This document shows positions 1-30,560 of a DNA stretch of 32,000 nt, in pieces. The translations under genes and the position numbers were made by a program. Source of the DNA: Candidatus Lokiarchaeum ossiferum (GTDB lineage: Archaea; Asgardarchaeota; Lokiarchaeia; Sigyniarchaeales; Promethearchaeaceae); contig CP104013.1 of the NCBI GenBank assembly GCA_025839675.1, positions 3,510,001-3,542,000 on the forward strand. Direction: 5' to 3'. Position 1 is the first letter of the stretch, and every line of letters starts with the position of its first letter. The notes below the pieces were generated by a model. The model was not told where the DNA came from, did not search any database, and was given only the letters and a program-made list of their open reading frames with translations.

Positions 1-1050
1 AACCCTCCTTATCTGTATTTGGGATATATTGTAAAAACCGCAGAAACTCAAAAATATCTTCCCCTTTTCACCAATGAAAATAGAGGGTTACAAGATTTGT
101 ATCAAATTGCTCTTATAAATGACTTACGAAATGCTATAGATCAAATGATTTACATCATACCTTCGAATTTCATTTTTGGTAATTCGGTTTCCAATAAAAT
201 TAGGGATGAATTTTTACCTTATTATTCGATTAGTCGTTCTTTCATTTTCGAAAAACAAATCTTCAAACATACTGGGACCAATGTGATGATCAATTTTTTC
301 CAACGTAATTTAAATCCTCAGTATTCCACTGTTGAATTTCAAGGCATTAAAATTGGTAAGGAACAAAAAGAAAATAGATATCTCTTAGAACCACAATATC
401 ATTATAAAGCAGGGTCAGAGTTTGAAACATTTATCACTAATTTTAAGGTGAAAAATCCCGTAATTATGAAATATTACCTTAAACAGCATGACGTGGATGA
501 ACATCCAGGCAAAAATGAGATAAAAGTAATTGATGCAAACAATTTTGAAAAAAGTGAATATGTTCTTTTAACCATTTTCGTAGATTCAAAATTCGCAAAC
601 GAAATTCAATCCAATCTTCTCTGGATACGTACGGTAGACACTGGAACACTAGATGGTCGTGCAGGACTTTATTCTATTAAAGGTTCATTCAATGCATCTG
701 GAATTTTGGTGACCAAAGCGACATATCGAACCCATCCAATTCAAATTTTCTTTTCTCCCCCACTATCAAAAGCAGAACAAAGATTATTGCAAAACTATTT
801 CAACTTAACTCTTGAATATCTTAGATCGATTACCGATAGTGAATTTATGACGACTTACAAGTATTCCTCGGGGCCCTATACTCGAAAATATTTTGGACTC
901 TCTCAAGCCAAGAAAATAATTGCTACTTTCCCCTTGAATCATTTGGATGATTCTGAGAAGAATTATTTCTCCAAACTTATTTATAATAAGGACGTTACTC
1001 AACTTCTCGAATTTTTAAAAACCGTTAAAAATAAATGGAAATCGAGTTAA
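1..1050 (+). CDS. N6-adenine DNA methyltransferase, Eco57I/gamma-class-like; C-terminal 349 codons only, 5' end lies outside the window
   Basis: Frame 1 is open from nt 1. Its first four codons (aac cct cct tat) read NPPY, the catalytic motif IV of amino-methyltransferases. Downstream, DLYQIALIN...MIYIIPSNFIFGNSVSNKIRDEFL...IFEKQIFKHTGTNVMINFFQR follows the usual Eco57I-type layout. The last ~230 aa would be a target-recognition region. The track start at 19 is a TTG inside this open frame and is probably not the true start. Stop TAA 1048-1050. Confidence 0.7.
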   Translation, partial: NPPYLYLGYIVKTAETQKYLPLFTNENRGLQDLYQIALINDLRNAIDQMIYIIPSNFIFGNSVSNKIRDEFLPYYSISRSFIFEKQIFKHTGTNVMINFFQRNLNPQYSTVEFQGIKIGKEQKENRYLLEPQYHYKAGSEFETFITNFKVKNPVIMKYYLKQHDVDEHPGKNEIKVIDANNFEKSEYVLLTIFVDSKFANEIQSNLLWIRTVDTGTLDGRAGLYSIKGSFNASGILVTKATYRTHPIQIFFSPPLSKAEQRLLQNYFNLTLEYLRSITDSEFMTTYKYSSGPYTRKYFGLSQAKKIIATFPLNHLDDSEKNYFSKLIYNKDVTQLLEFLKTVKNKWKSS

Positions 1051-1796
1051 TGAGAACATGTATGTTGTCAGAAGAAGAAAAAGAACGGTATCAGCGCCAA
1101 ATCTTGATTATTGGGGATAAAAAACAAGAATCTCTCAAAAATAAGAAGATTCTACAAGTAGGGGCTGGCGGATTAGGAGGCCCCCTAATTCTCGCTCTGG
1201 TTGCAGCGGGAGTTGGTGAAATTATTCTTTTCGAAAATGATGTAGTATCTCTTTCCAATTTAGGAAGACAAATTTTGTATAAAACACAAGATTTAGGACT
1301 TTCAAAAGGTGTATTGGCTCAAAAAAGATTGCAAGAATTGAACCCTCATGTCAAAATCACTGTGATTGAAGAATGGCTATCCGCAAAATCTGCCCCAAAA
1401 TATTTAGATCCAGGAGATGTTGATTACTTAGTTGATGCTTCTGATAATTTTGAAACCAAATTCCTTGTTAATGATCTTGGGTTAAAATATAATATTCCTT
1501 TTACAATAGCGGGGATCCAAGGGTTTGAAGGGCAACTTATTTCTGTAGATCCCCATCGTACGGCATGTTATCGATGCTTGTTTGGTGATGTACCCAAAAA
1601 GAAAGATACTTCGCCTATTCCAGTGATGAGTTCCACTTGCGGTGTGGTAGGTTCCCTCCAAGCAAATGAAATATTGAAAGGACTTTTAAACCATGGAACT
1701 CGCATTTTGAATGCATTGTTGATGATTGGGCTAGAAACTGGAGATTTCACCAAAATTCCAATTAATCCAAATCCAAATTGCATCTGCCAAAAATAG
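1050..1796 (+). CDS. ThiF/MoeB/UbaA-family adenylyltransferase (short E1-like enzyme for a sulfur-carrier or SAMP/Urm1-type beta-grasp protein)
   Basis: Family motifs present: RYQRQILI, Rossmann loop VGAGGLGG, NLGRQILY, DASDNFETKF, CYRC Cys pair, STCGVVG, and a C-terminal C-I-C. ATG 1050-1052 overlaps the upstream stop as TAATG. Alternative in-frame ATGs lie at 1035 and 1062. Confidence 0.85.
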   Translation: MRTCMLSEEEKERYQRQILIIGDKKQESLKNKKILQVGAGGLGGPLILALVAAGVGEIILFENDVVSLSNLGRQILYKTQDLGLSKGVLAQKRLQELNPHVKITVIEEWLSAKSAPKYLDPGDVDYLVDASDNFETKFLVNDLGLKYNIPFTIAGIQGFEGQLISVDPHRTACYRCLFGDVPKKKDTSPIPVMSSTCGVVGSLQANEILKGLLNHGTRILNALLMIGLETGDFTKIPINPNPNCICQK

Positions 1797-1851: not shown

Positions 1852-2202
1852 ATGAGTGAACGAACAAAATTTTGTTCCTTTGCCAGCGATCCCGAAAAAT
1901 GTCATCAATTTGAAAAAATGATGTCCAACATTGGCAACAAAATGAATTTACCCGTACAAATGCTCCAATCCATTGGGCAAAGCTCATTTCAAAAAATTGA
2001 GAACAACAAAAATATCACTCTCTCCAATTACTTCACAGCATCTCCGACAAAAAAATCACACATAATCCAAGAAATTCTTGATATTCTTTGTGGAGAACTA
2101 AAAAACACTGGACATTCACGTAAAATGGTTAATAATTTTCGAGATATCGCTGAAATACAGCTGGATATTTTTTTTAATGAGAAAAAATCGTTATTTAGTT
2201 AA
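1852..2202 (+). CDS. hypothetical small protein (116 aa)
   Basis: ORF with an ATG start, 55 nt after the ThiF-like gene on the same strand. No recognisable domain. It contains EKMMSNIGNKMNLPVQ, which resembles the start of the partial ORF at 31923. Confidence 0.4.
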   Translation: MSERTKFCSFASDPEKCHQFEKMMSNIGNKMNLPVQMLQSIGQSSFQKIENNKNITLSNYFTASPTKKSHIIQEILDILCGELKNTGHSRKMVNNFRDIAEIQLDIFFNEKKSLFS

Positions 2203-2657: not shown

Positions 2658-5381
2658 ATGTCTATGTCCACTACGGTATTACTTCAACAAATTAATGATG
2701 TCGATACGGAAGCTCGGCTTCTCGCCATCAAACGTCTAGGTATGATCTATGATGATGAAAAAATTATCGATCCTCTCCTAAAATTGCTCTTGGATAACGA
2801 TGCCCGGATAAGAGAAGCAGTTATTTTATCTTTAAGCGTTCAATCCTCTTCACCCAAAATAATTAAGCCCATTATTAATGCGTTATCTGATGAAGTGGTT
2901 GATGTTCAACTCGCGGCTATTAAAGCCTTGTCAGAATTTAGGTCAATTCTTGCGACGAAACCATTAATCAAAATCTTATCGGATCCTGAAGATGAAGTAA
3001 GAGCAGGGACTGTCTTAGCTCTGGGATTAATTGAAGATAAAAATGCTTTATTTCCTCTTATAGATTGTTTGGAAGATCAAAATTCTCAAGTGCGAATTAA
3101 TGCACTCGTAGCATTATCACAACTCGGGGATCCCCGATCAATTGATCCGATTATCGATTTAATTCAGAATGAAACGGATGATATAGTCAAACAGATGGCT
3201 ATTCTTTCTTTGGGACCATTAGGCAAAGGGGATAAACGAATAGTTGAACCCTTAATTCAACATTTATCATCTCCCAATCCTCGCTTTCGTCAATATGCAA
3301 TTGTCTCGCTAGGACAAACAAAAAATCCCGAAATCATAAAGCCTCTTCTCAAACTGTTAAATGATGAAGATGCTTATGTAAGAAGAGCATGTGCAACTGC
3401 ATTAAGTGATGTGAAAGATCCTGCAACTGTTAAAGAATTCATCGCACGACTTGATGATGAAAACGCAGAAATTCGGGAAACCGCAGCCCGAGCTTTAGGA
3501 AAATTGGGTGATATTGATGCTATTTTAGGATTAATCCACGCATTATATGATACATCAAATGCTGTTAGGGAAGAAGCGGCTAAAAGTTTAGGTGATTTGG
3601 AAGATTCCGCCGCAAGTAAATCGTTAATTTCTGTTTTCAAAAAAGAACAAGATCCTAGTGTTAAAATTGCTATGGCAATTGCTTTGGGGAGAATAGAAGG
3701 TAATTCTCCTCCATCCACTTCATTTGTTCTGGCAAATCCCGCGATGCGAGTTCTGTCTAAAGCACTTTCCCATAAAGAATTAGGTGTAAGGGCTGCTTCT
3801 GCAGAATCTCTTGCAAAAATCTGCATAAACAATAAAAAATATGGTAAAGCCAAAAATTATTATCGACGGGCCAGTGATGAATCGCTGACTTGGGAGTTTA
3901 AACAACCTTTCAATTTAGCCTCATCCTTAGGATGCGAGGTAATGGATCGCCTATCAAAGAAACATTATGGTGGGATGGCGAGTATTTTCGAGGCTATTTA
4001 TGACAATTTAGCAACGGCTGCTAAAATGATAGGAAATCACACATTTATTTCCAAAAACTATTGGAAGATCTTGGAAGTTTATGATCAGATTTTTCAAAGT
4101 AAAAATAAAGGCCAATTTGTGCAACATTTTCGAGATTTGGGTTTAAAGATATTATTACTTGCAAAAAAATTACCTGAAGATAAACAAAATCTATTAAATA
4201 CCTCGCAAGACCGTTTGAATGAAAAATTTCAAGTTATTGATAAACGAGGATTAGCATTATCAGAATCACTCGTGGAAATGGAAAATTTAAAACCTGATTT
4301 ATTTGATATCGGAAATAAAATACTTCAAATCGAGCCTTTGGAATTGCGTATGGATGAAGATCAAGAAAATACGATTAATGTGATTGAAGATCTGTCTGAA
4401 ATTCCTTCAATGGGTGCCTTAGCAACTATGGATACCACAGATCTCCTCCGTGAAGAAGAAAATATAATCCAACGTCATGTCACGCGGGAAGTAGATCGGA
4501 AATTTTTATTGGAAGACATTCCTCTAACCATGGATACGCACCTCTTTGCAGGAAAAGATCTTTCCGTTGGATTAATTCAATTTTTACAAGGAGCAAAACG
4601 TGAAAGTTTTATTGAGGATGATAGAGATTTGTGGGAAAAATTTGTCAGAAGATATTATGATGAGGAAGTCTATCGACAAACCCGCATTTTACAATTTACT
4701 CAAGAATCCATTCAATTTCGAGCTAAACCAAAAATAATTGGTTATTTGGATGATGCAATTTATGAAGGGTGTAAATTAATAATATTTCCAGAATGCTCGA
4801 TGCCAGAATCATATCTCCCGAAATTACAACAATTTGCGGATCGATTCAATATTTTCATTATTGCTGGAGTTGAATGTATTTCCGATCAAGGACATTTTTA
4901 TAATCGAGCCTATTTTATCTCCCCAATGAATGAGAATATGCCATACCAACAAAAAAATACACGCACCGTAATGCCCAGTTCTGAAAAGAATATGCTGGAA
5001 TGGGTTGAAAACATTGAAACTACGAGCCCACCTAAATTCAGTATCTTTGAGTCTCCCTTCGGGAAATTTATCATATTGATTGGAAATGATATTAAAGAAT
5101 ATTCTCAGTTTATTCCATTTATCACTCGAGAACGGGGATTGGATTTCGCATTGTTCTTGAATAATGGAATTGAAAATACCGCTCTAAGTCATAAATATCA
5201 GGAATTAGCAACTGAAATTTCCAAACCGATCTTATATCTCAATACTGGTCAATTTGGAGGTACTAATGTCTACTTGGCGAAAGACACTCAGCAATCGCCC
5301 CTCCAATCAGAATATTCTGAAGGCATTTTCCATTGGAAATATGCGGTACCAGAAGATGATATGCCCGAGTTTGAGTTGTAA
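2658..5381 (+). CDS. HEAT-repeat protein fused to a C-terminal carbon-nitrogen hydrolase (nitrilase-superfamily)-like domain
   Basis: The N-terminal ~390 aa hold about 11 PBS-lyase-type HEAT repeats, a recurring D-x-(D/N)-x-x-V/I-R-x-x-A-x-x-(A/S)-L-G/S pattern (e.g. DNDARIREAVILSL, DEDAYVRRACATAL, DENAEIRETAARALGKLG). The C-terminal ~260 aa follow the CN-hydrolase layout: CKLIIFPECSMP, FIIAGVE, FYNRAYFISP, PYQQKNTRT, FGKFIILIGNDIKEY, GLDFALFLNNG, LNTGQFGGTNVY. ATG 2658 is preferred over TTG 2643. Confidence 0.7.
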   Translation: MSMSTTVLLQQINDVDTEARLLAIKRLGMIYDDEKIIDPLLKLLLDNDARIREAVILSLSVQSSSPKIIKPIINALSDEVVDVQLAAIKALSEFRSILATKPLIKILSDPEDEVRAGTVLALGLIEDKNALFPLIDCLEDQNSQVRINALVALSQLGDPRSIDPIIDLIQNETDDIVKQMAILSLGPLGKGDKRIVEPLIQHLSSPNPRFRQYAIVSLGQTKNPEIIKPLLKLLNDEDAYVRRACATALSDVKDPATVKEFIARLDDENAEIRETAARALGKLGDIDAILGLIHALYDTSNAVREEAAKSLGDLEDSAASKSLISVFKKEQDPSVKIAMAIALGRIEGNSPPSTSFVLANPAMRVLSKALSHKELGVRAASAESLAKICINNKKYGKAKNYYRRASDESLTWEFKQPFNLASSLGCEVMDRLSKKHYGGMASIFEAIYDNLATAAKMIGNHTFISKNYWKILEVYDQIFQSKNKGQFVQHFRDLGLKILLLAKKLPEDKQNLLNTSQDRLNEKFQVIDKRGLALSESLVEMENLKPDLFDIGNKILQIEPLELRMDEDQENTINVIEDLSEIPSMGALATMDTTDLLREEENIIQRHVTREVDRKFLLEDIPLTMDTHLFAGKDLSVGLIQFLQGAKRESFIEDDRDLWEKFVRRYYDEEVYRQTRILQFTQESIQFRAKPKIIGYLDDAIYEGCKLIIFPECSMPESYLPKLQQFADRFNIFIIAGVECISDQGHFYNRAYFISPMNENMPYQQKNTRTVMPSSEKNMLEWVENIETTSPPKFSIFESPFGKFIILIGNDIKEYSQFIPFITRERGLDFALFLNNGIENTALSHKYQELATEISKPILYLNTGQFGGTNVYLAKDTQQSPLQSEYSEGIFHWKYAVPEDDMPEFEL

Positions 5382-20633: not shown

Positions 20634-21653
20634 TTAGTTATCAATGTCAATGATGAGTTTTTTATTAAAATCGGTCAGAATTTTTTCATGTTCTTCCAAC
20701 ATTTCTTTTTCTTCAAGCTGGATTACTTCATATTTGTAAAGTTTTGTTCCACAATAACGGCAGAAACTTTTCCCTTGGTCAATTAATTCTGAAACATTGA
20801 CTTTTTGGAAAGGTGTGGAACAATACTTACATATTTTAGTATTAGATACTTTTCCTCCTGCTGTAAAATCATCTTTTTCAACTGGATAATAACGAAGTTG
20901 TGTGAAATGGGCATAGAAGGCTATTATCCCACTAAAAGAATTTAATAATAAAATTAAATCTATAATATTTTCCCAAACAATTCTGATTTCTCCCATATAA
21001 TAACAGTAGGATATTAAAAATCCCATAATACTTCCAGAAATGCAACAAAAGAAAATCAAACGGATGTAATTTGTGAAATCTTGTGTAGTAGGTTTATATT
21101 TTTGATGATATCGATAGAAATTAATCACTCCTAAAAACGCGAAAATGAAGCTACCTCCTTCTAAACTTAAAAAAACTGCCATTTCAACTAAAAGAACTTG
21201 TAATATAATAAATATGAGTTTTTCTTTTCCTTTCGCTTCATTTCTATAATGAAATTGTATATTGATCCATTTCCTGCCCTCTTCTTCATAATGAGCAGAT
21301 ATTAATAATAATATTGGTATATCTGCAATTATTGCGGTAAATGTACTCCACGATGCACCAATATTGTTACTCCAAGCAGGTATAATTGAAATTTTTATAA
21401 AATTCATAATAACCCAGCCTAGTATCATTAAGATCTCATAATTCTTCATATTAAAAGAGACCGGTCGATAAACAGAGATCAATGTATATAAATAAAATCC
21501 CGAAAGAATTGTAAAAATGATAATAAACCATTCGGAAATTTTCCAATCATTACTCACAACTTCAGAATTTTGTGCAAACGGATAAGAAACAAGAGAAAAT
21601 ATGATCCAAAGAAAAATTATTGAAATTTTTTTTGCTAGATTTGGGTTTTTCAT
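20634..21653 (-). CDS. membrane protein with C-terminal zinc ribbon and conserved helical tail, paralog A
   Basis: About 8 TM helices, then CKYC-x17-CRYC, then LYKYEVIQLEEKEMLEEHEKILTDFNKKLIIDIDN. ATG 21653 (MKNPNL) is chosen by alignment with paralog B. Confidence 0.6.
   Translation of the reverse strand: MKNPNLAKKISIIFLWIIFSLVSYPFAQNSEVVSNDWKISEWFIIIFTILSGFYLYTLISVYRPVSFNMKNYEILMILGWVIMNFIKISIIPAWSNNIGASWSTFTAIIADIPILLLISAHYEEEGRKWINIQFHYRNEAKGKEKLIFIILQVLLVEMAVFLSLEGGSFIFAFLGVINFYRYHQKYKPTTQDFTNYIRLIFFCCISGSIMGFLISYCYYMGEIRIVWENIIDLILLLNSFSGIIAFYAHFTQLRYYPVEKDDFTAGGKVSNTKICKYCSTPFQKVNVSELIDQGKSFCRYCGTKLYKYEVIQLEEKEMLEEHEKILTDFNKKLIIDIDN
20637..20831 (-). repeat. conserved 3' segment of paralog A (pairs with 21718-21912)
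   Basis: This 195-nt segment encodes the zinc ribbon plus tail. It is clearly alignable to 21718-21912 at nucleotide level. About 56 of 65 codons encode the same residue, versus roughly half in the TM region. Confidence 0.7.
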
Positions 21654-21672
21654 TGTATACATCACCACCATA

Positions 21673-22755
21673 TTATAAAAAAAATTGAATTGAAGTTTCT
21701 GTGAACTTTTGGGTTAAATTATCAAGGTCAATTATGAGTTTTTTGTTAAAATCGGTTAGAATTTTTTCATGTTCTTCTAACATTTCTTTTTCTTCAAGTT
21801 GAACGACTTCATATTTGTAAAGTTTCGTTCCACAAAAACGGCAGGTACTTTTCCCTTGATCAATTAATTCTGTTATATTGACTTCTTGGAATGGGGTAGA
21901 GCAATAGTTACATTTCTTTGTATGAGAATTTTCTCCAGTGGCTATATATTCATATTTTTCAATAGGATAGTAATGAATCTGTGCAAAATGAGCATAAAAC
22001 GCTACTATTCCAGTTAATGATATTAGCAATAATATTATATCAATTAAAATTGACATTCCAGCGAATATCTCTCCTAAATAATAGATATAAACGACATAAA
22101 TTCCCATAGTGCTTCCAGAGATTCCACTAAAAAAAACTAATCGCACATATTTTGTTAAATCTTGTGTGGATGGATTGTGTTTTTGGTGATAAATACAAAA
22201 AATAATTGCTCCAATAAATGCAAAACTAAAACAACCAAATAGTAAAACAAATACCGTAAAAATTGCTAATTCTAACAAAATCATCTGAATTGTAATGAAA
22301 AATATTATTTCCTTTCCCTTTGCCTCATTTCTAGAAAAAATTTCCAATTTGATCCATTTATTAAACTTCTCCTCATAATCTAATGAAATTCTGATTAGTA
22401 TGAAGATATCTATGATAATAAAAATAATAGTAATCCCAAATATCCCAAAAGTGCTATTGAATGATAAGATAGTTCCATCAAGATCAAAAGACAACCCAAT
22501 TTTGATTAGATTTATGAAACTCCAGCCCAATATCATTATAATCTCATAATTCTTCATACTGAAAGAGATTGGCCTATAAATGGATATCCAAATATATAGA
22601 TAAAATCCGGAAAGAATTGGAAAAATCAGAAGCAACCATTTGATTACATCTCCATCAAGACTAGAAACACTTGGTACAAAATGATAGACAACCAGAGATA
22701 ACATAATCCAAAGGATGACCATTGTTTTTTTTTTTATGAGATTAGAGTTTTTCAT
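21673..22755 (-). CDS. membrane protein with C-terminal zinc ribbon and conserved helical tail, paralog B
   Basis: Same architecture as paralog A: CNYC-x17-CRFC, then LYKYEVVQLEEKEMLEEHEKILTDFNKKLIIDLDN plus a 14-aa extension. Shared TM-region motifs: ILSGFYLY, YRPxSFxMKNYEIxMILGW, RNEAKGKE, YHQK, AFYAHF. ATG 22755 (MKNSNL) is preferred over 22788. Confidence 0.6.
   Translation of the reverse strand: MKNSNLIKKKTMVILWIMLSLVVYHFVPSVSSLDGDVIKWLLLIFPILSGFYLYIWISIYRPISFSMKNYEIIMILGWSFINLIKIGLSFDLDGTILSFNSTFGIFGITIIFIIIDIFILIRISLDYEEKFNKWIKLEIFSRNEAKGKEIIFFITIQMILLELAIFTVFVLLFGCFSFAFIGAIIFCIYHQKHNPSTQDLTKYVRLVFFSGISGSTMGIYVVYIYYLGEIFAGMSILIDIILLLISLTGIVAFYAHFAQIHYYPIEKYEYIATGENSHTKKCNYCSTPFQEVNITELIDQGKSTCRFCGTKLYKYEVVQLEEKEMLEEHEKILTDFNKKLIIDLDNLTQKFTETSIQFFL
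21718..21912 (-). repeat. conserved 3' segment of paralog B (pairs with 20637-20831)
   Basis: See the partner entry at 20637-20831. The last 36 codons of the shared region differ at only 2 positions (I/V, I/L). Confidence 0.7.
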
Positions 22756-22784
22756 CGCGTTTATCACCAATATAAAAAAAGGGG

Positions 22785-23039
22785 TCACAGTTTCTTTTTT
22801 ACTGCTTCTAATAATTCGAAATATAATTTCTTATATAGGTTTCGTTCTTCTTGGCATCGATCTAACTGCTCACGAAGAGATTTGGCTTCTTCCATCTTTT
22901 CTTGCATTTTTTTGAGAGTGGTGTTCGACATCCCACTTCCAAATTTGGATTTCAAAGTAGCTTGAATTTCTCGATAGGGCACACCTAATTGAAGAAGTTG
23001 TCTTGCTAAGTTAACTTTTTCATCACTAGATTTACCCAA
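22785..23039 (-). CDS. small helix-turn-helix protein with C-terminal coiled coil (putative regulator)
   Basis: NLARQLLQLGVPYREIQATLKSKFGSGMSNTTLKKM resembles a 3-helix HTH. It is followed by a heptad-like segment, EEAKSLREQLDRCQEERNLYKKLYFELLEAV. It sits directly upstream of, and co-directional with, the paralog pair (30-nt gap). Confidence 0.5.
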   Translation of the reverse strand: MGKSSDEKVNLARQLLQLGVPYREIQATLKSKFGSGMSNTTLKKMQEKMEEAKSLREQLDRCQEERNLYKKLYFELLEAVKKKL

Positions 23040-23397: not shown

Positions 23398-24735
23398 TTA
23401 ATCCGCTTCCAGGTGCACAGTATCTTGTTGGGTTTGCATTTCTTTCAAAAATATCCTGCTATTTTTAGAATAGAGAGTGAAAGCAACAATTATTATGTTT
23501 AAAATTCCACACCAAACATACAATTCTCGAATCGAACCCAATGCATCAGCAATAGGGCCAGCAAGGATCATACCAATGGGAGAGGCTAAAGTAGCTAAAC
23601 TTACCACAACGGATATAACTCTTCCCATTTTTTCAGGAGGGACACTCCTCTGAAGAGTTGTTTGAAAAAGTGCATTTACAATTGGATTGAGTAGTAACAT
23701 GAAAAATGCTACTGTATACAGCAAAATGAAATTACTTTGCCCTATCACACCTAGCAATAACAATCCGATTCCAGTTGAAAATAATCCCACAGACATAATT
23801 GCTATAACATTCTTCCACCGTTTCTTGAGGGCAGAAATTAATCCTCCTAATAACATGCCTGCTTGTAAGAATGCCATGAAGTACCCTAAGTGCTGTTTCT
23901 CACCTAAATGTTCATATTTAATAAAATTCGGAAGAAGCACATCTAAGGGTTGCATAATGAAGTTTGCAAAAATTGCTAAAATCATGATACCTGTAAATCC
24001 CTTAATTTCTTTGATTGCATGGATCCCTTCTTTAAATTGCGTGAAAAAGGATGGTTCTGGAGGGTGTTCATAGGCATCTCCCATTTCTTGTTTTTGTTGC
24101 TCGATTTGTTTCTCTTTAAGCGATTTCGGAATTTTAATTTGGATTATCGTCAGTAGAGCAAGAAGAAATGTAATAATATCTATCCAAAGAATCAACTCTA
24201 CCGCAAGGAATACCATTAACCAAGCTCCAATGACGGGCCCAATTATTCGGATGATACTAGAAAGGAAGAAGTTGATACCATTAACACGAGATAATTTTGA
24301 GGGGGGGACCAATTGAGGAATCAATGAAAAAGTGACCGGTTCATGGAATGCTTGACAAACACTCCGCAATGAGTTCAAAGTGAGAATGTGCCATACTTTC
24401 ACCTCAGAGAAGTAGAAAATTAGGATGATACCTAAGGTTAAAAATGCTTGAGCTGAATCGGCAATTATAATAATCTTCTTTTTGTCATGTTTGTCGGCAA
24501 ACACACCTGCAATGGGGGATAAAATGACAATAGGAATTAGCCCTAAAAAGAATGCCAAGGAGAGAATTGTATTGTTTTCTCCCACCATATCCGTTAAATG
24601 CCAAATTAATACAAACATTATAATTGACGAGCCAAAAATTGAGGTCATTTGGCCAGATAAGAACAATAAATATGAACGATATTTTGCTTTTGATTCTAAT
24701 GAGTTGATCTGATCAAATTTGTTTTCTTCAACCAT
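23398..24735 (-). CDS. MFS transporter (MFS_3/EntS-Mef-like efflux type)
   Basis: About 12 TM helices. The N-terminal YLLFLSGQMTSIFGSSIIMFVLIWHL and GVFADKHDKKK loop are typical of this MFS subgroup. A central charged loop is present. Only 36 nt separate it from the RING-like gene, with no long T tract between. Confidence 0.8.
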   Translation of the reverse strand: MVEENKFDQINSLESKAKYRSYLLFLSGQMTSIFGSSIIMFVLIWHLTDMVGENNTILSLAFFLGLIPIVILSPIAGVFADKHDKKKIIIIADSAQAFLTLGIILIFYFSEVKVWHILTLNSLRSVCQAFHEPVTFSLIPQLVPPSKLSRVNGINFFLSSIIRIIGPVIGAWLMVFLAVELILWIDIITFLLALLTIIQIKIPKSLKEKQIEQQKQEMGDAYEHPPEPSFFTQFKEGIHAIKEIKGFTGIMILAIFANFIMQPLDVLLPNFIKYEHLGEKQHLGYFMAFLQAGMLLGGLISALKKRWKNVIAIMSVGLFSTGIGLLLLGVIGQSNFILLYTVAFFMLLLNPIVNALFQTTLQRSVPPEKMGRVISVVVSLATLASPIGMILAGPIADALGSIRELYVWCGILNIIIVAFTLYSKNSRIFLKEMQTQQDTVHLEAD

Positions 24736-24771: not shown

Positions 24772-25968
24772 TCAAAATTTTTTCTTCCAAAATTTGTAGG
24801 CCCGTAAGTAGTCTTTCACTTGGATTACTTTGGGATTACGGCGAAAACTGCTTGGAATCGTCCCATCACAACGAGAACATAGACTAGAAGTGCGTACCCA
24901 ATTTTTGAATTCATCCACGTGGGCGGGATAATTACAATTTGGACAGAGAACAATCCCCCGATGCCCGTCAGAAGTACTCGGAAGTTCAAAACAGAATATA
25001 CACTTGAAATCATCGGGGGTTAACACTCCAGTCTTTGGTTTCATACGTAAAAGTTCTTTTTTGCTTACTGAGGAAGAAGAGGTGGTCCTAGAAACTTTTG
25101 GTTTAGAAGACGATTTGGACTTTGAACGTTGTAGGCGTTCTTGTTCCCTTTGTTGTTTTCTCCGGGCTTTCTCTTCCTGCTCACGACGACGAGATTGTTT
25201 TCTCTCCAAATCTCTTTGTCTTCTTCTCTGGTCACGCTTCTGTTGTTCTTGGGCTTGGGCTTTTTTCTCTCTCTGGCGAGCTGCATCGGCAAAACGATCT
25301 GCGTCCTCTATTTGACGATCGATATTGTTCAACCTATTAGAAACACCTCGCATTGAAAATCCTGAGATTCTGGGCCTACGTTTGGTGATCGCAAAGAGAA
25401 AATAGATTACTAATACACACAAATTCAGAAGAATTATCAAATTGATTCCAGAAGTTTCAGGCGCAATATTTTGAAACACGTTTCCTCCCAGAACAAGATA
25501 AATAAAATCAAAAGAAATGAGAATCAAACTTGTAATGATCATAAATGGACGAGCATCAATTGATTTGGTTCCAATGAAAACGGTAAAATATTTTGAAATG
25601 CAAAACGACAATAAGATCATACTAAAAAATAAATAGGGGACAGCAAGAATTAGAGTCCAAATATTGAAGGATACATTGATAGGCAGTACCACATCCTGCA
25701 AAATTGTTGTAAAATCTCCCCAAATCCCATAAAATGTTCCTACTAATAAACCCCCAAATATAATTACAAAATTATTCAGCGAAGCACTATATTCGCGGAC
25801 TCGTTTTATCTTGGAAACATATTCGAATAAAATACAAAGCCATAATCCAAGTAATATATGTGAAAAGAAACCATTCAAAGAATCACTTGGTGCATTTCCG
25901 GTAAAAACTGCAATGAGTAAGCTAACTACAAGAACTACAAAATATAAAATGATCTTTGAAACTTTCAT
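24772..25968 (-). CDS. polytopic membrane protein with charged linker and C-terminal RING-like zinc finger (candidate membrane E3 ligase)
   Basis: The N-terminal ~200 aa hold ~6 TM helices. A ~75-aa R/K/E/Q segment follows (RQREKKAQAQEQQKRDQRRRQRDLERKQSRRREQEEKARRKQQREQERLQR), then a Ser/Lys-rich spacer. The finger reads CIFC-x15-CPNC-x4-H-x2-E-x3-W-x7-CSRC. Confidence 0.7.
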   Translation of the reverse strand: MKVSKIILYFVVLVVSLLIAVFTGNAPSDSLNGFFSHILLGLWLCILFEYVSKIKRVREYSASLNNFVIIFGGLLVGTFYGIWGDFTTILQDVVLPINVSFNIWTLILAVPYLFFSMILLSFCISKYFTVFIGTKSIDARPFMIITSLILISFDFIYLVLGGNVFQNIAPETSGINLIILLNLCVLVIYFLFAITKRRPRISGFSMRGVSNRLNNIDRQIEDADRFADAARQREKKAQAQEQQKRDQRRRQRDLERKQSRRREQEEKARRKQQREQERLQRSKSKSSSKPKVSRTTSSSSVSKKELLRMKPKTGVLTPDDFKCIFCFELPSTSDGHRGIVLCPNCNYPAHVDEFKNWVRTSSLCSRCDGTIPSSFRRNPKVIQVKDYLRAYKFWKKKF

Positions 25969-26034
25969 TGTTTTTACCTAAGTTCCCAAAATTAAAAATC
26001 CCTAAAAAAAGGATGGAAAAAAAATTATTTATTT

Positions 26035-26871
26035 TTATTCGTCATATTCCAAAAACAAATCTTGACCATCTACAATAGGATTAGCAAAATCCAACAGTTC
26101 GGGAAGGACATTTGGAGAGATATTTCCTTTGATTTTAAACGGAACTTCATACCACTTGGCAGTCTTTAAATTAGCACGGAAAATATTAAATCCATATGAA
26201 CTTCCATCAATTTGGTAAGGATCGATAACTAATGCTACCGATTTTTTCCATAATTTCTGATAACGAGCTTGAGTCCCCATATCCTCAGAGCTTAAAAATA
26301 GTCCATAGGATGGATGGGAGTGATACCATCCGCAAATAAAGAGGCCTTTTTTTTGCAAGTCGGTGTATGCTTTAACATAGTTGTTATAATCTTTAATTTC
26401 TGCATGAATGGCATTTCCATGCCCCATTGGGTAGACATCTTCAATATAAAGTACTTCATTGGGCTCATCCCACTTTCCCGCCAATAAACCAATAACTTCT
26501 ACCCATTTAGATCTTTCTATTTTGTCATTTGCATATTTTTTTGCATGAGTTGCAATTTTTAAAATGGCTTTTGCTGAAATTAGAGTTTTTTCTTCTTCTT
26601 TTACTGGTGCCATTTGGGAGCCAATTAACTTTTCACTATTCGCTTGGGCATTATTTTTCTTCACTATTTTTTTAAAACTTGTACTCAGAGTTTCATCGGA
26701 AAGCATTTCTTGTTCGCTAAATTTTTCCTCATTACTCTCTTCATTTTTGAGTTCCTGATAGATTTCTTGAAGAACTTCTTTTTTTATCTCGTTTTTTAAT
26801 TGCTTTAGCATTTCTGCTTTTAATTTTACTTTTAATTCCTTGATTTCAGGAGAATCGTTTTCATTTTCCAT
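26035..26871 (-). CDS. JAMM/MPN+ metalloisopeptidase (Rpn11/CSN5-like)
   Basis: Catalytic Glu in WVEVIGLLAG and the complete JAMM motif GWYHSHPSYGLFLSSEDM (HxHx7Sx2D). The catalytic core is preceded by a ~100-aa K/E-rich extension. Confidence 0.9.
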   Translation of the reverse strand: MENENDSPEIKELKVKLKAEMLKQLKNEIKKEVLQEIYQELKNEESNEEKFSEQEMLSDETLSTSFKKIVKKNNAQANSEKLIGSQMAPVKEEEKTLISAKAILKIATHAKKYANDKIERSKWVEVIGLLAGKWDEPNEVLYIEDVYPMGHGNAIHAEIKDYNNYVKAYTDLQKKGLFICGWYHSHPSYGLFLSSEDMGTQARYQKLWKKSVALVIDPYQIDGSSYGFNIFRANLKTAKWYEVPFKIKGNISPNVLPELLDFANPIVDGQDLFLEYDE

Positions 26872-26884
26872 AATAATTACCTGA

Positions 26885-27412
26885 TCACCATTTTTTGTTG
26901 GCGTATTTCTTGACTAAATTTTTGACTTTTTTATCAAATTTTTTCGGCTCTTTCATCATTTCCAGCGCTGCTTTTTTATTAAATACGTCTGTTGGATTAA
27001 TATACGATCCAGCAGTGTTCAACATTGCTGTAATTGCTTGAATCACTGTAACTGCCGTTTTTGAAGGACTCCAACCTCCCTTCTTTCCTATGTAGTTTGG
27101 ATCCACTAACGCTAAGCAAATATTTCGTTGTCCTACATATTCGGTAGGTTTGGGCCAAAAATTCGGATGCCATATTGGTGTGTGTAAACGAACGAATGGT
27201 GGTTGGCTTGGATACTCTGCTGGGAATTTCATCTCAAGCCTAAATAATCCCTTTGCATAGGCTGTTCCTTTTGGTCCTACTAACAGTATTTTCAAGTGAT
27301 CAATACTTTTTTTACTGGAATCAAAAGCTTTCAATTGTTTAATTGTCCCATCTTTGTACAATTTCTTTAATCTAGCGTAATCTTGTGTAATTCTTTTTTG
27401 TCTGAGACTCAT
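26885..27412 (-). CDS. UBC-fold ubiquitin-conjugating enzyme (E2)
   Basis: GPKGTAYAKGLFRLEMKFPAEYPSQPPFVRLHTPIWHPNF...RNICLALV...WSPSKT. The HPN triad is at residues 82-84. The active-site Cys99 codon is at 27116-27118, with WSP downstream. Confidence 0.9.
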   Translation of the reverse strand: MSLRQKRITQDYARLKKLYKDGTIKQLKAFDSSKKSIDHLKILLVGPKGTAYAKGLFRLEMKFPAEYPSQPPFVRLHTPIWHPNFWPKPTEYVGQRNICLALVDPNYIGKKGGWSPSKTAVTVIQAITAMLNTAGSYINPTDVFNKKAALEMMKEPKKFDKKVKNLVKKYANKKW

Positions 27413-27503: not shown

Positions 27504-28742
27504 CTATTTAAATAACCGTATAGTGACATATATTTCCCCTTCTTGAAACCCAGAAAGAGTAATTAAAGACAGTGACCGTATTTTGTTCTCCTTAGCATTT
27601 TTTTCTAAATCCAACTCTCTTAGTGAATCAAAATCTGGTACCGTCAAAATAGGTTCCATCTCTTCATCTAGATGATATCCCTTCATCTTCAAGGCATTTA
27701 TGATACATTCTAGGTTTTGGTCCTTTCGCAGATAGAATTCTTCACGCAACACATTTTTGCCACATTGAAAGCATTCGGGGTTTCGCGGCTTTTCTAAATG
27801 ATAAAATCGTTCAGTCATACCATTATAAATAATATATTCTTTGCTTGGAATTCCTAATGCCGTATTTCCCTTAAGATAGTTGAGAATTTTCAATATTTCT
27901 TGAGATTGAATGCTCGCAATTACTGCATTAATCGTAATAATACCTGGTTCATGGTGATCTATGATATTTATAACTTCTTTTACAGTAAAATCTGGTTTAA
28001 ATCCATATTTATCGACTAACTTATTCGCAAAGGATTTTAGGAATTTAATATCTTCATAATTTTGTGGATCTGGATCCTTTGCAAATTTCTCTTCATAGGC
28101 CATCGTTGCTTTGAAAAGACAATGAACTCGTTTACGGGGTATTCCAACAACAGTACAGGCGGCCATTTCATCACTTTCAGTCGACGATGTTGGATGGCAT
28201 TCATAACATGCGTTTTCAAAAGGAAAGATCGTATAAATATGACCATGATACCCATTAACTCCACCGTCTACCAAAGGTTTATTAAATCGAATTGCTTGTA
28301 GGTTTAAATTAACCCTCGCATTCATGGAATCTAATCCGCCTACAATGACATCTGCTTTCTTGAATAGAATAGGGGGCAAATTTTCAAGGGATGTATGGTA
28401 TCCTTTCAATGTAATATTAGGATTAATTTTTTGTAACATTTCCGCTGCGGCGATAGCTTTAGGCTTCGCTATATCTGCATTAATGAATAACATTTGGCGA
28501 TTTAAATTTGAATGCTCAATTACATCCAAATCAACTAGATCAATATGACCAACTCCAAGCATAGTAAGATTTTTTGCTATTTCACAACCGAGACCGCCTA
28601 CACCTGCAATCAAAACTCGAGCATTCTTCAATATTCGCTGATCCCAACCTTTTAACCGGAATTGTCTGTCATAAAGCTGGCGCTCTGATTCAGTAAGATC
28701 TTTAGAAAAGAAATTTGATTCTTCCAAAACATAATCCCTCAA
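27504..28742 (-). CDS. eukaryote-type ubiquitin-activating enzyme (E1, Uba-like) with catalytic-Cys segment and C-terminal ubiquitin-fold-like domain
   Basis: LYDRQFRL, IAGVGGLGCEIAKNL, DLDVIEHSNLNRQMLF, GGLDSMNAR, zinc pairs CYEC and CFQC, and an inserted segment with AACTVVGIP that resembles the PxCT catalytic-Cys motif of eukaryotic E1s. The ~70-aa C-terminal domain ends EGEIYVTIRLFK. No in-frame ATG exists near the 5' end, so the start must be TTG (28742 or 28727). Confidence 0.9.
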   Translation of the reverse strand: MRDYVLEESNFFSKDLTESERQLYDRQFRLKGWDQRILKNARVLIAGVGGLGCEIAKNLTMLGVGHIDLVDLDVIEHSNLNRQMLFINADIAKPKAIAAAEMLQKINPNITLKGYHTSLENLPPILFKKADVIVGGLDSMNARVNLNLQAIRFNKPLVDGGVNGYHGHIYTIFPFENACYECHPTSSTESDEMAACTVVGIPRKRVHCLFKATMAYEEKFAKDPDPQNYEDIKFLKSFANKLVDKYGFKPDFTVKEVINIIDHHEPGIITINAVIASIQSQEILKILNYLKGNTALGIPSKEYIIYNGMTERFYHLEKPRNPECFQCGKNVLREEFYLRKDQNLECIINALKMKGYHLDEEMEPILTVPDFDSLRELDLEKNAKENKIRSLSLITLSGFQEGEIYVTIRLFK

Positions 28743-28788: not shown

Positions 28789-29145
28789 TTATATTCCCGC
28801 AGTACTTGCGGGAATAAGTAAAACTGTATCTCCGTCCTTGACGGGATAATCCATTATGAATTTTCCTTCATCCATGGTAACTCCACCATGGGACAAGTGA
28901 AAATCGGATGGATTAACTCCAAATATATTTCCAACAGTTGTTTTAATATCTCCAACTTGATTTCCAGTGTTCACGAGTAATTTCTGCTTTTTCTCACCAG
29001 GACCAATTGTAGACATGAAGAAAACTGAAATATCTTTACCTCCTGGTGCTTGTGCCGCATTTGGTGTTTTTGAGGCAATAGCAGGGGTTTTATCTTCGAT
29101 ATCTTCATCCAAATCTTCATCTAAGTCATCAAAATCTTCTGACAT
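28789..29145 (-). CDS. ubiquitin-like beta-grasp protein with acidic N-terminal extension
   Basis: First gene of the E1/E2/JAMM cassette. The C-terminal ~80 aa (DISVFFMSTIG...KKQKLLVNTGNQVGDIKTTVGNIFGVNPSDFHLSHGGVTMDEGKFIMDYPVKDGDTVLLIPASTAGI) have the length and hydrophobic pattern of a beta-grasp Ubl and a Gly next to the C-terminus. The N-terminal ~40 aa are D/E-rich. The fold assignment is inferred, not demonstrated. Confidence 0.65.
   Translation of the reverse strand: MSEDFDDLDEDLDEDIEDKTPAIASKTPNAAQAPGGKDISVFFMSTIGPGEKKQKLLVNTGNQVGDIKTTVGNIFGVNPSDFHLSHGGVTMDEGKFIMDYPVKDGDTVLLIPASTAGI
28792..28816 (-). promoter_or_regulatory. perfect 10-bp stem, 5-nt loop hairpin over the last codons of the Ubl gene
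   Basis: tattcccgca-gtact-tgcgggaata. The GC-rich core stands out in an AT-rich context. It spans the codons for PASTAGI and ends one nt before the stop. Confidence 0.45.
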
Positions 29146-29324: not shown

Positions 29325-30560
29325 GTGATCAAAGTGGTAAAGCAAAAAACTCCCGATTCTACTATTCGCGTGAAAACACCTGTTATTTCATCGAAAACTC
29401 CCTCGGATCTTGATTCAAATCAACTAAAATCTGAACGCAAAAAACTTGAAGCGGAACGTCAAAAACTAGAAGAAGAACGAAATCAATGGCAAAAAATACT
29501 TAACAAAATGCAACAATATTCCGATTCCCTTGATGAACTTGAACAAAAACGAAAAGACAAGATTGATGATATCAAAATTCTTGAGCGTGATCGGAAAAAT
29601 ATTGTTGAAGACATCGATCGTTTGAATAAATCATTCGATGAAGGAAAGAAACGACTTGACAATGTAATTTATGATCTTGAAGACAAAAATGGAGTTCTTA
29701 GACGTAAAGAACTAGAGTTGGAAGATCGAGAGAAAGATCTTGAAGATCGCCATCATCAGATTAAAAAAACCCGCATAAAAGTTCAGGATAAAATCAATGA
29801 CGCAAAAGAACAACTTGAAGATTTTGACTCGAAAAAAGATCGTCTTGATCGGGATGTCCAAAATCTTGAGCGTAAGAAACAAAATTTAATTGACGATCTC
29901 CAGAACGAAAAAGAACGTCTCAATAAAACAAATAGGGATCGAAAAGCACTAGAAAAAGAACGAAATCAATTGCAAAATGAAGTAGATCGCTTGAATCGTG
30001 AAAAAGATAGGATAAGGGATGAACGTAAGCGATTAAATCAAGAGAAAGATGATTTAAACAAAGTCCGTGATCGGATTCAAGATGAAAAAGATGCTTTAAG
30101 AAAGAAACGGAAGCAAGAAGAAGATCGTATGAACAAAATCCAACGAAATGCTGCTGATGATCTCAAAAAAACACAACAAAAACGAAAACAAGCAGAAAAT
30201 GAATGGAATAATTATCGTAAAAAAATTCCTGAAGCCGAACGGAAACTGCGTTCAATGGAGAAAAAGGTTGATGACGCTAAAGGAGATTGGAATCGTATCA
30301 AACGTGATAATGATCAATTGAAAAATGAAAATAAACACCTTCAAAATGATAATCGACGAATCAATGATGAAAAGAAACGTCTAAGAAAAGAACGAAATGA
30401 CATTGAAAATGAAAAGTCTAAAATCAAGCGATTGGAGAAAGACCTCGAGGGAAGGATGCGCAAAGTTCAAAATTTACAAAAAGATTTAGAGAATCAAATT
30501 CAAAAGGCGAAAATAAAATCTAAAACCCCTGGAATTCGGTCTAAAACTCCAGGTTGGTAA
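29325..30560 (+). CDS. long heptad coiled-coil protein with KTP-motif termini
   Basis: About 360 aa of nearly uninterrupted K/E/R/D/N/Q heptads (e.g. EVDRLNR-EKDRIRD-ERKRLNQ-EKDDLNK-VRDRIQD-EKDALRK). They are flanked by QKTP..VKTP..SKTP at the N-terminus and SKTPGIRSKTPGW at the C-terminus. The start is uncertain: GTG 29325 or GTG 29334, with no nearby ATG. Confidence 0.6.
   Translation: MIKVVKQKTPDSTIRVKTPVISSKTPSDLDSNQLKSERKKLEAERQKLEEERNQWQKILNKMQQYSDSLDELEQKRKDKIDDIKILERDRKNIVEDIDRLNKSFDEGKKRLDNVIYDLEDKNGVLRRKELELEDREKDLEDRHHQIKKTRIKVQDKINDAKEQLEDFDSKKDRLDRDVQNLERKKQNLIDDLQNEKERLNKTNRDRKALEKERNQLQNEVDRLNREKDRIRDERKRLNQEKDDLNKVRDRIQDEKDALRKKRKQEEDRMNKIQRNAADDLKKTQQKRKQAENEWNNYRKKIPEAERKLRSMEKKVDDAKGDWNRIKRDNDQLKNENKHLQNDNRRINDEKKRLRKERNDIENEKSKIKRLEKDLEGRMRKVQNLQKDLENQIQKAKIKSKTPGIRSKTPGW

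Follow-up and report, generated by a model that had tools for sequence, protein, structure and literature searches.

No known organisms are more closely related to eukaryotes than Asgard archaea, whose ubiquitin (Ub) operons are taken to represent the ancestral form of the ubiquitin system. Here, we describe the fifth gene of such an operon in Candidatus Lokiarchaeum ossiferum, which encodes a predicted membrane protein ending in a RING-like finger (designated 'TM-RING', for transmembrane [TM] RING) and which, judged from its sequence, is probably a membrane-embedded RING-type ubiquitin ligase (E3), a role whose catalytic part we infer. The window that was analysed is a stretch of 32,000 nucleotides (nt) from NCBI GenBank assembly GCA_025839675.1 (contig CP104013.1, positions 3,510,001–3,542,000 of the forward strand), and all nucleotide coordinates given below for this genome refer to it. 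The TM-RING gene lies at 24772..25968 on the minus strand, where a 398-amino-acid (aa) open reading frame (ORF) begins with ATG and ends with a stop codon at 24772–24774. Its product has no Pfam match above threshold and is 98% identical to a hypothetical protein of Ca. Lokiarchaeum ossiferum. Neither Pfam nor NCBIfam holds a model for the family, and database entries for its homologs are called 'hypothetical' or are misnamed after the charged linker described below ('ATP synthase subunit b', 'FlhF').

The operon is a co-directional row of the order Ubl–E1–E2–JAMM–X, with the TM-RING gene in the position of X and all five genes on the minus strand. The ubiquitin-like modifier (Ubl; 28789..29145) has a weak match to Pfam ubiquitin (6.5e-5), an acidic N-terminal extension, and a C-terminus reading ...ASTAG-I. 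The E1-like activating enzyme of the ThiF family (27504..28742; Pfam ThiF, 1.2e-58) keeps its operon position across related loci. The E2 of the UBC fold (26885..27412; Pfam UQ_con, 4.6e-26) has an HPN motif, a catalytic Cys99, and the RING-binding loops YPSQPPF and WSPS. Directly upstream of the TM-RING gene lies that of a JAMM/Rpn11-like deubiquitinase (26035..26871; Pfam JAB, 1.1e-14).

The original prediction for this stretch had proposed the fifth gene as a candidate E3 composed of about six TM helices, a charged linker, a Ser/Lys-rich spacer, and a finger, and this architecture was borne out by the 398-aa ORF, Kyte–Doolittle hydropathy, residue composition, and AlphaFold2 (AF2) modelling. 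The TM domain (residues 1–195; 25384..25968, minus strand) contains six hydrophobic segments on the Kyte–Doolittle scale. A full-length AF2 model built on 117 homologs (mean predicted local distance difference test score [pLDDT] 86.6) places the TM helices at residues 3–22, 31–59, 67–83, 103–125, 139–160, and 177–195, mostly with pLDDT >90, adds a small beta-hairpin in the loop between TM helices 4 and 5, and ends in a compact C-terminal domain with a pLDDT of about 95. Conservation within the membrane domain is centred on TM2–TM4 and on two cytoplasmic loops with the consensus KxYREFNSPHNT and CFKKYxVIYFGTKSxxAR (the latter being the beta-hairpin), and TM5–TM6 are variable.

The charge of the loops points to an arrangement with both ends inside. 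Lys and Arg residues number 2, 4, 3, and 8 (the last within residues 195–230) in the successive loops on one side of the Lokiarchaeum protein and 0, 0, and 0 on the other; across 117 sequences, the mean per loop is 3.2/4.4/5.0 inside versus 0.06/0.07/0.27 outside. By the positive-inside rule both termini would be cytoplasmic, and the finger is thus predicted to face the cytoplasm. Were TM1 a cleaved signal peptide, the orientation of the remaining segments would be unchanged.

No relative of the TM domain emerged from the searches. A fold search of the PDB with the full-length model (Foldseek) gave no credible match, only low-probability ones, and a profile search of PDB sequences gave none, including to Hrd1, Doa10, and Pex complexes. 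We discarded VKOR and ZnT as fold assignments because their Foldseek probability was 0.1–0.2, and likewise the Pfam matches to PFF1_TM, Presenilin, and Selenoprotein_S, which are sub-threshold, sporadic, and overlap the low-complexity linker. What the TM domain does retrieve is its own architecture: a TM-only profile run against 5.8 billion proteins yielded 192 matches, and the best 120 of these 192 share the TM-RING architecture, almost all of them with 360–391 aa and a few shorter or partial. The TM domain and the finger therefore appear to be an obligate pair, at least among the 120 of 192 matches listed.

Between the two domains lie a basic segment adjoining the membrane (KRRPR...) and, after it, a helix rich in R/Q/E/K (together residues 196–283; 25120..25383, minus strand, assigned by composition and AF2), and then a flexible spacer rich in Ser and Lys (residues 284–305; 25054..25119, minus strand; 10 Ser and 5 Lys of 22 residues). 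Residues 206–283 comprise 20 Arg, 14 Gln, 9 Glu, 7 Lys, 7 Ala, and 6 Asp among 78, with a net charge of +12, and AF2 models residues 206–277 as one continuous helix (pLDDT 78–95, about 11 nm if straight) and residues 277–298 as disordered (pLDDT <50). Since only eight of the 78 residues are larger hydrophobics (excluding Ala), a coiled-coil core is unlikely and a single stable helix plausible. Classical single-alpha-helix domains are near neutral in charge; the modelled helix and its few hydrophobic residues would fit such a domain, yet its charge of +12 is atypical and the helix is clade-specific. Indeed, the helix-like linker of the original prediction is present in Lokiarchaeum and is not a feature of the family: only about 30 sequences near Lokiarchaeum have this composition, whereas in most of the others examined the linker is of low complexity, rich in Ser/Thr/Arg/Pro, and probably disordered. 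Linker length is 61–156 aa across the family (median 105), and each of the 64 loci measured has a linker charge between +15 and +26 per 100 residues. As length and strong positive charge are what is conserved, the family feature is a long basic tether rather than a helix.

The most conserved part of the protein is the RING-like domain, which with its flanking helices (303–308 and 384–397) is supported by AF2, Foldseek, and hhalign (residues 306–398; 24775..25053, minus strand). The finger core, from C323 to C367 (24868..25002, minus strand), reads C323-x2-C326-x15-C342-x2-C345-x4-H350-x2-E353-x3-W357-x6-C364-x2-C367. These spacings were established by column counts and by a census of 207 family fingers and 25 fingers of canonical relatives, in which the Trp was required by the search pattern. 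All the spacings initially proposed stand except that between Trp and Cys7, which had been given as x7 and is x6 in 232 of 232 fingers. Among 117 aligned homologs, the six Cys residues, H350, and W357 are invariant, the last being the RING-H2-type Trp that had been noted as retained, four residues after the Glu. D352 and E353 are each kept in 115 of the 117. That Glu occupies the sixth ligand position, as predicted, is indicated by three observations: the residue is Glu in 204 of the 207 family fingers (Ala in the other three), a set that includes divergent sub-branches; D352 varies in those sub-branches; and hhalign sets E353 opposite the sixth-ligand His of other RINGs. Thus, of the eight ligand positions of a RING, seven are invariant Cys or His and the sixth is nearly always Glu. 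Carboxylate ligands do occur in RINGs (e.g. Asp in RBX1). From alignment to canonical RINGs and cross-brace logic rather than from coordinates, zinc site 1 would comprise C323, C326, H350, and, as its fourth ligand, E353 (Cys2-His-Glu), and site 2 would comprise C342, C345, C364, and C367 (Cys4).

A RING/U-box fold for this domain is supported by a fold model, by distant relatives, and by profile–profile comparison. A separate AF2 model of residues 300–398 (24775–25071) reached a pLDDT of 90.7 and a predicted template modelling score of 0.79, and its Foldseek neighbours in the PDB are almost exclusively RING or U-box E3 domains (probability 0.9–1.0, TM-score about 0.5). Every one of the top 50 matches that can be identified by its description is a RING, U-box, or RING-like domain (probability 0.6–1.0). 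These neighbours, several of them solved with an E2, include 3lrq, 7xed (OsUBC8), 4wz3 (UBE2D2), Bmi1/Ring1b–UbcH5c, Rad18, the HRD1 RING, and RNF4.

Sequence relationships lead in the same direction by steps. A profile of the finger domain searched against 1.84 billion representative proteins found 124 proteins, about 100 of which show the TM-RING architecture, whole or as fragments. Its weak tail consists of small archaeal proteins (E 1e-9 to 1e-3) whose fingers pass the Pfam zf-RING_2 threshold and match Prok-RING_1; P0213, P0225, P0228, and P0233 do so for the latter at 1e-6 to 5e-11. With hhalign, the family finger aligns to 13 small archaeal RING proteins at 98.6% (E 9.5e-16) with the ligands in register. 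Homology of the finger to the curated RING models is transitive only, as read from the hhalign match to proteins that pass the zf-RING_2 threshold. The small RINGs closest by sequence, P0218 and P0217, are not encoded in Ub operons. Candidate soluble versions of the finger were dismissed as fragments: the short matches examined (91–190 aa) start inside the linker or the TM region, or look truncated or frameshifted. One of them, P0156, looks like a single-TM version.

The positions through which RINGs contact an E2 look largely kept, apart from the Pro after Cys7. The hydrophobic pair after Cys1 (I324/F325 in Lokiarchaeum) is Ile-Phe in 183 of the 207 family fingers, and W357, on the helix, is invariant in the 117 aligned sequences. 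In the small RING finger protein srfp of Caldiarchaeum subterraneum, the hydrophobic I30, W58, and the linchpin R69 are each required for full activity (PMC5654768). The TM-RING family has conserved counterparts of I30 and W58 and does not keep that of R69. Because the Ile-Phe pair and the Trp are retained and the linchpin is not, the E2-docking surface looks preserved and the lock that holds E2~Ub in its closed state looks missing or moved. R366, one residue before Cys8, is kept in 196 of 207 fingers and might compensate for the linchpin.

The family comprises about 120–190 full-length homologs of the same architecture. In a genome scan that took one genome per species (185,579 species), 141 loci were found and 80 retained. 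The retained loci belong to Asgard or to unclassified 'uncultured archaeon' metagenome-assembled genomes (MAGs), except for one probably misbinned MAG, and represent Promethearchaeota (including Promethearchaeum), Hel-, Hod-, Hermod-, Odin-, and Sifarchaeota. The TM-RING family is restricted to Asgard archaea. One contig with a complete Asgard-type operon including TM-RING (L060, DATKTW010000176.1) comes from a MAG labelled Candidatus Nanopelagicaceae bacterium and is most likely misbinned.

Linkage to the Ub-system genes was assessed from both sides. Starting from TM-RING, 87 of 87 loci have the JAMM gene as the next one upstream, in the same orientation and usually within about 30–130 nt, and Ubl, E1, and E2 precede it wherever the contig reaches. 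Starting from the E2 in metagenome contigs, TM-RING is present in 46 of 47 loci whose contig extends far enough downstream and in 12 of 12 partial ones (58/59 together). The sole exception, L126 (5486–7300), has the Ubl-system genes through JAMM followed by the usual downstream neighbours and no TM-RING gene, which suggests its loss or relocation. The gene downstream of TM-RING varies (LysE, GTP cyclohydrolase [GCHY-1], POR, MFS), and TM-RING is the only RING-like gene of the operon. Hence the linkage between TM-RING and E2 holds in both directions across Asgard classes and is much tighter than that with any metabolic or transport neighbour. The survey found TM domain and finger together and, in 87 of 87 loci, tied to Ub genes; the helix-type linker proved clade-specific.

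No variation was seen among 61 E2 orthologs in the HPN motif, in the catalytic Cys99, or in either RING-binding loop, and the protein is 74–92% identical across Asgard classes. TM-RING proteins are only about 30% identical, a gap in rate that is unusually large for presumed partners. The termini of the Ubl were compared in the 69 loci among L001–L087 that have a recoverable proximal Ubl ORF. The N-terminal extension is conserved and very acidic (MSFDEFDEDL-type) and leads into a KSKTP..KTP motif, and the C-terminus is ...LLIPASTAG plus 0–6 further residues (...STAG-I in Lokiarchaeum), with Ala-Gly in place of the Gly-Gly of ubiquitin. Processing of a Ubl precursor by JAMM has been shown for C. 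subterraneum (PMC5654768, PMC6043591), and by analogy the extra C-terminal residues fit such processing here. About 20 loci carry a second, distal Ubl gene, the proximal one adjoining E1; a 2.2-kb insertion that seemed to separate Ubl from E1 in about 20 loci was an artefact of taking the best tblastn match, which is the distal Ubl. The JAMM protein has a charged N-terminal extension of about 90 residues. A possible electrostatic pairing of the acidic Ubl tail with the basic tether did not show as covariation (Spearman -0.06, p 0.64, n=64), a result with which binding would still be compatible.

Taken together, these data lead us to regard TM-RING, with moderate confidence, as the E3-like component of the Asgard Ubl–E1–E2–JAMM operon, built as an integral membrane protein. 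The candidate-E3 claim gains from the RING/U-box fold, the homology, and the strict operon linkage, and loses from the catalytic hallmarks of the finger, which head the points that weigh against it. Ligand 6 is Glu in the family and mostly His in the nearest canonical relatives (His 20, Glu 3, Asp 1, and Cys 1 in 25 fingers). The residue after Cys7 is Ser in 189, Pro in 11, and Ala in 7 of the 207 family fingers versus Pro in all 25 canonical relatives. The linchpin position after Cys8 is Asp in 89, Asn in 68, Ser in 29, Gly in 12, Glu in 4, Ala in 3, Thr in 1, and Leu in 1, and Lys or Arg in 0 of 207, compared with 14 of 25 canonical relatives; the Lokiarchaeum protein has S365 for the usual Pro and D368 for the linchpin Arg/Lys. 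The Foldseek E-values are modest (6e-3 to 0.2), as the finger domain is small. Pfam has no direct recognition of the finger: the best RING-type match of the Lokiarchaeum protein is Prok-RING_1 at E 0.77, and a family-wide scan gives zf-RING_16 weakly in 13 of 117 members and zf-RING_2 in 1 of 117. Some of the best structural neighbours (IFT144/WDR19 and GATOR2 subunits) come from large assemblies and not from E3–E2 complexes.

The three altered hallmarks are also what a non-catalytic RING-like module would show. TM-RING might then be a membrane receptor or scaffold whose finger does not activate E2 and instead docks E2, Ubl, JAMM, or ubiquitylated proteins, or oligomerizes, an explanation that we consider unlikely. 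The RING-like domains of IFT-A, GATOR2, and HOPS/CORVET subunits serve non-catalytic docking and assembly, and those of IFT144/WDR19 and GATOR2 are structural within their assemblies. Such domains stand close to the family finger: its best PDB profile match is the C-terminal zinc-binding domain of IFT144, at a non-significant E of 0.073, and WDR19/IFT-A (26–28% identity, TM-score up to 0.58) and GATOR2 RINGs are among the top Foldseek matches. However, the family conserves the Trp and the hydrophobic positions for E2 contact, the E2 of the operon is intact, extremely conserved, and equipped with canonical RING-binding loops, the operon encodes no second RING, and the near-invariant R366 could replace the linchpin, which many active RING E3s lack in its Arg form in any case (RBX1 has Asn). 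It is because the closed-state lock is missing or moved that confidence in the E3 assignment is held at a moderate level.

The constant adjacency of the JAMM gene would also fit a membrane regulator or anchor of the protease, i.e. an adaptor that places or activates JAMM and does not work with E2; the charged JAMM extension could pair with the tether. We judge this improbable, as the simple order of the operon explains adjacency equally well, the RING fold has no known role in JAMM activation, and the conservation pattern of the finger matches E2-binding positions. Very improbable is a function unrelated to ubiquitylation, in which a transporter, sensor, or lipid-handling protein with a regulatory or nucleic-acid-binding finger is co-transcribed with the Ub genes for regulation only. 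The conserved polar and aromatic residues of the TM core (N65, T87, W43, W104, K126, R140), the very basic tether, and the VKOR and ZnT matches are of the kind that such proteins could show, but those matches have the low Foldseek probabilities given above, the finger is homologous to RINGs and not to DNA-binding fingers, and linkage to E2 holds across Asgard classes (87/87 and 58/59) while metabolic and transport neighbours vary freely.

If TM-RING is the E3-like component of the operon, a mechanism can be outlined in which zinc binding through Glu353, E2 binding, catalysis, and the nature of the substrates are all what we infer. The six-helix domain would sit in the cytoplasmic membrane with both ends inside, and the strongly basic tether of about 100 residues—in Lokiarchaeum mostly a rigid charged helix—would keep the divergent RING on the cytoplasmic side, at a distance from the bilayer of up to about 10 nm or more. 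There, the RING would bind the E2~Ubl thioester formed by the operon E2 through the hydrophobic surface of I324/F325 and W357. Proteins in or near the membrane, perhaps the TM-RING protein itself among them, could then receive Ubl on their lysines. The conserved TM2–TM4 core and the two cytoplasmic loops would select the substrate or partner, and JAMM would both mature the Ubl precursor (...TAG-I in Lokiarchaeum) and reverse the modification. Such an arrangement suggests that the Asgard Ubl–E1–E2–JAMM system works at the membrane. A bolder extension, which we find speculative and distinctly unlikely, is that the core Ubl system, common to most Asgard lineages, is dedicated to the membrane, with a polytopic E3 as the sole one in its operon: TM2–TM4 would recognize or extract membrane proteins, and the Ala-Gly Ubl tag would direct them to ESCRT sorting or to Cdc48/proteasome, making the system—with its Cys2-His-Glu RING and activation by means other than a linchpin—a prokaryotic forerunner of membrane-protein quality control of the type seen in degradation associated with the endoplasmic reticulum (ERAD) or in multivesicular bodies.

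Comparison with known systems sets the family apart in its build. The E3s of archaeal and Asgard operons have been described as small RING finger proteins (Hennell James et al. 2017, PMC5654768; PMC6043591; bioRxiv 10.1101/2023.07.25.550441, the last on a RING E3 of Helarchaeia), in agreement with the statement of the original prediction that archaeal cassette RINGs known so far are small. Full-text searches of the searchable literature turned up no account of a membrane-spanning RING encoded in the Ub operons of Asgard archaea. Like srfp, TM-RING is a RING-type finger encoded with Ubl, E1, E2, and an Rpn11-like JAMM in an archaeon, and the two have in common the hydrophobic residue after Cys1 and the Trp, both shown by mutagenesis in srfp to matter for E2-dependent activity (PMC5654768); homology to the small archaeal RINGs is further documented by the hhalign result. 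Unlike these small, soluble proteins, TM-RING has 398 aa, six TM helices, and the basic tether, and it differs from srfp in its Glu at the sixth ligand, in the absence of a linchpin Arg, and in having Ser for Pro after Cys7.

The idea of a prokaryotic RING tethered to the membrane has a precedent. The Pfam family Prok-RING_1 (PF14446) is said to include bacterial members with TM helices, its entry reportedly being based on a 2011 study (Mol Biosyst 7:2261) in which Burroughs, Iyer and Aravind are said to have described prokaryotic RING fingers next to Ub, E1, E2, and JAB genes. TM-RING scores poorly against this model, as noted above, and a polytopic TM domain, a Glu ligand, and an Asgard-wide five-gene operon are not part of the family's description as far as it could be checked.

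Eukaryotes have many polytopic RING E3s, and the original prediction had likened the protein to Hrd1 and to the Doa10/MARCH type. The analogy holds for the general build. As in Hrd1/gp78, Pex2/10/12, and RNF121-type proteins, an N-terminal multi-spanning domain precedes a cytosolic C-terminal RING that would bring E2~Ub to the membrane, and the HRD1 RING (6f98) is among both the structural and the sequence neighbours of the finger. It fails in the details: the TM domain has no detectable similarity to that of Hrd1-type proteins, the ligands are C4-H-E-C2 with C-x2-C-x4-H spacing and not C3H2C3, and the genes beside TM-RING include no membrane E2, Cdc48 adaptor, or lectin partner. RING-CH proteins (MARCH, Doa10/MARCHF6) are likewise membrane-bound E3s with Cys at ligand 4, His at ligand 5, and a Trp after ligand 6. 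In these, the RING-CH domain lies ahead of the TM segments, on their N-terminal side, with C-x-C-x7-H spacing and Cys at ligand 6, whereas the TM-RING finger is C-terminal with C-x2-C-x4-H spacing and Glu at ligand 6, and has no match to Pfam RINGv (RING-CH) either in the Lokiarchaeum protein or in the family scan.

A further likeness is to IFT144/WDR19, IFT121, and the GATOR2 subunits WDR24, WDR59, and MIOS, which also have C-terminal RING-like zinc-binding domains; in these protocoatomer-type proteins the domains act as structural glue. IFT144 and the family finger have the motif CPxC[KR][FY]PA in common, and 9a2d_F superposes on the finger with a TM-score of 0.58 (root-mean-square deviation 2.1 Å, 75 columns), although the sequence match to IFT144 falls short of significance in a database of 178k sequences and the protocoatomer-type domains end beta-propeller or solenoid proteins that have no membrane domain and no Ub operon. 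The small archaeal RINGs weakly match Pfam Zf_2nd_IFT121. The likeness to IFT144 and GATOR2, at present short of significance, might hint at where the RING-like domains of protocoatomers came from.

Several neighbours of the operon deserve mention. Next in the co-directional row, 36 nt downstream of the TM-RING gene, is that of an MFS transporter (23398–24735; Pfam MFS_1, 5e-37), which had been suggested as a substrate or partner. The distance and the lack of a long T run in the gap are as described, and they make co-transcription plausible in this genome. As a conserved partner the transporter is ruled out, since tblastn with the window MFS found no homolog in 167 related loci (87 + 80), so that the idea applies at most to this genome. 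The 66-nt gap between the JAMM and TM-RING genes (25969–26034) has runs of T8 and T7 and, after them, a stretch rich in A/T. With such runs there and none in the 36-nt gap, transcription of the TM-RING gene may, on this reading of the sequence, start from a promoter of its own and run on into the MFS gene here.

On the other side of the operon, a divergent gene (29325–30560, plus strand) encodes a 411-aa coiled-coil protein with KTP motifs at both ends (N-terminus VKQKTP..VKTP..SKTP, C-terminus KSKTPGIRSKTPGW), the same short motif as in the Ubl extension; about 30 related loci have a homolog upstream of the operon. Two tandem paralogs situated downstream of the operon, at a distance of a few genes (20634–21671 and 21673–22788, both on the minus strand), encode multi-spanning membrane proteins with a C-terminal CxxC...CxxC zinc ribbon and a short coiled coil, and belong to no Pfam or NCBIfam family. 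Genes at 1019–1840 and 1922–2593 of locus L011 and at 3055–3849 and 3929–4606 of locus L003, all on the minus strand, provide a second membrane connection of the gene neighbourhood. Additionally, a second, short ThiF-family E1-like gene (1035–1796, plus strand; 253 aa; Pfam 1.9e-61) is followed by an ORF of 116 aa without a family (1852–2202, plus strand), and the two possibly form a separate SAMP/MoaD-type system in the same window.

The E3 idea is directly testable because two cultured genera (Lokiarchaeum, Promethearchaeum) have members of the family, all the partners are encoded next door, and the soluble C-terminal domain is small with a confident model. Published reconstitutions used small soluble RING proteins, and the family offers a natural RING variant for learning what a RING minimally needs, with its Glu ligand, no linchpin, and, in most members, no Pro at Cys7+1. 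If the E3 that travels with the most conserved Asgard operon is indeed a membrane protein, the original job of the system was probably at the membrane. That job would be the turnover, sorting, or remodelling of proteins there, and would tie in with the proposed Asgard Ub–ESCRT connection and with the origin of ERAD-like pathways.

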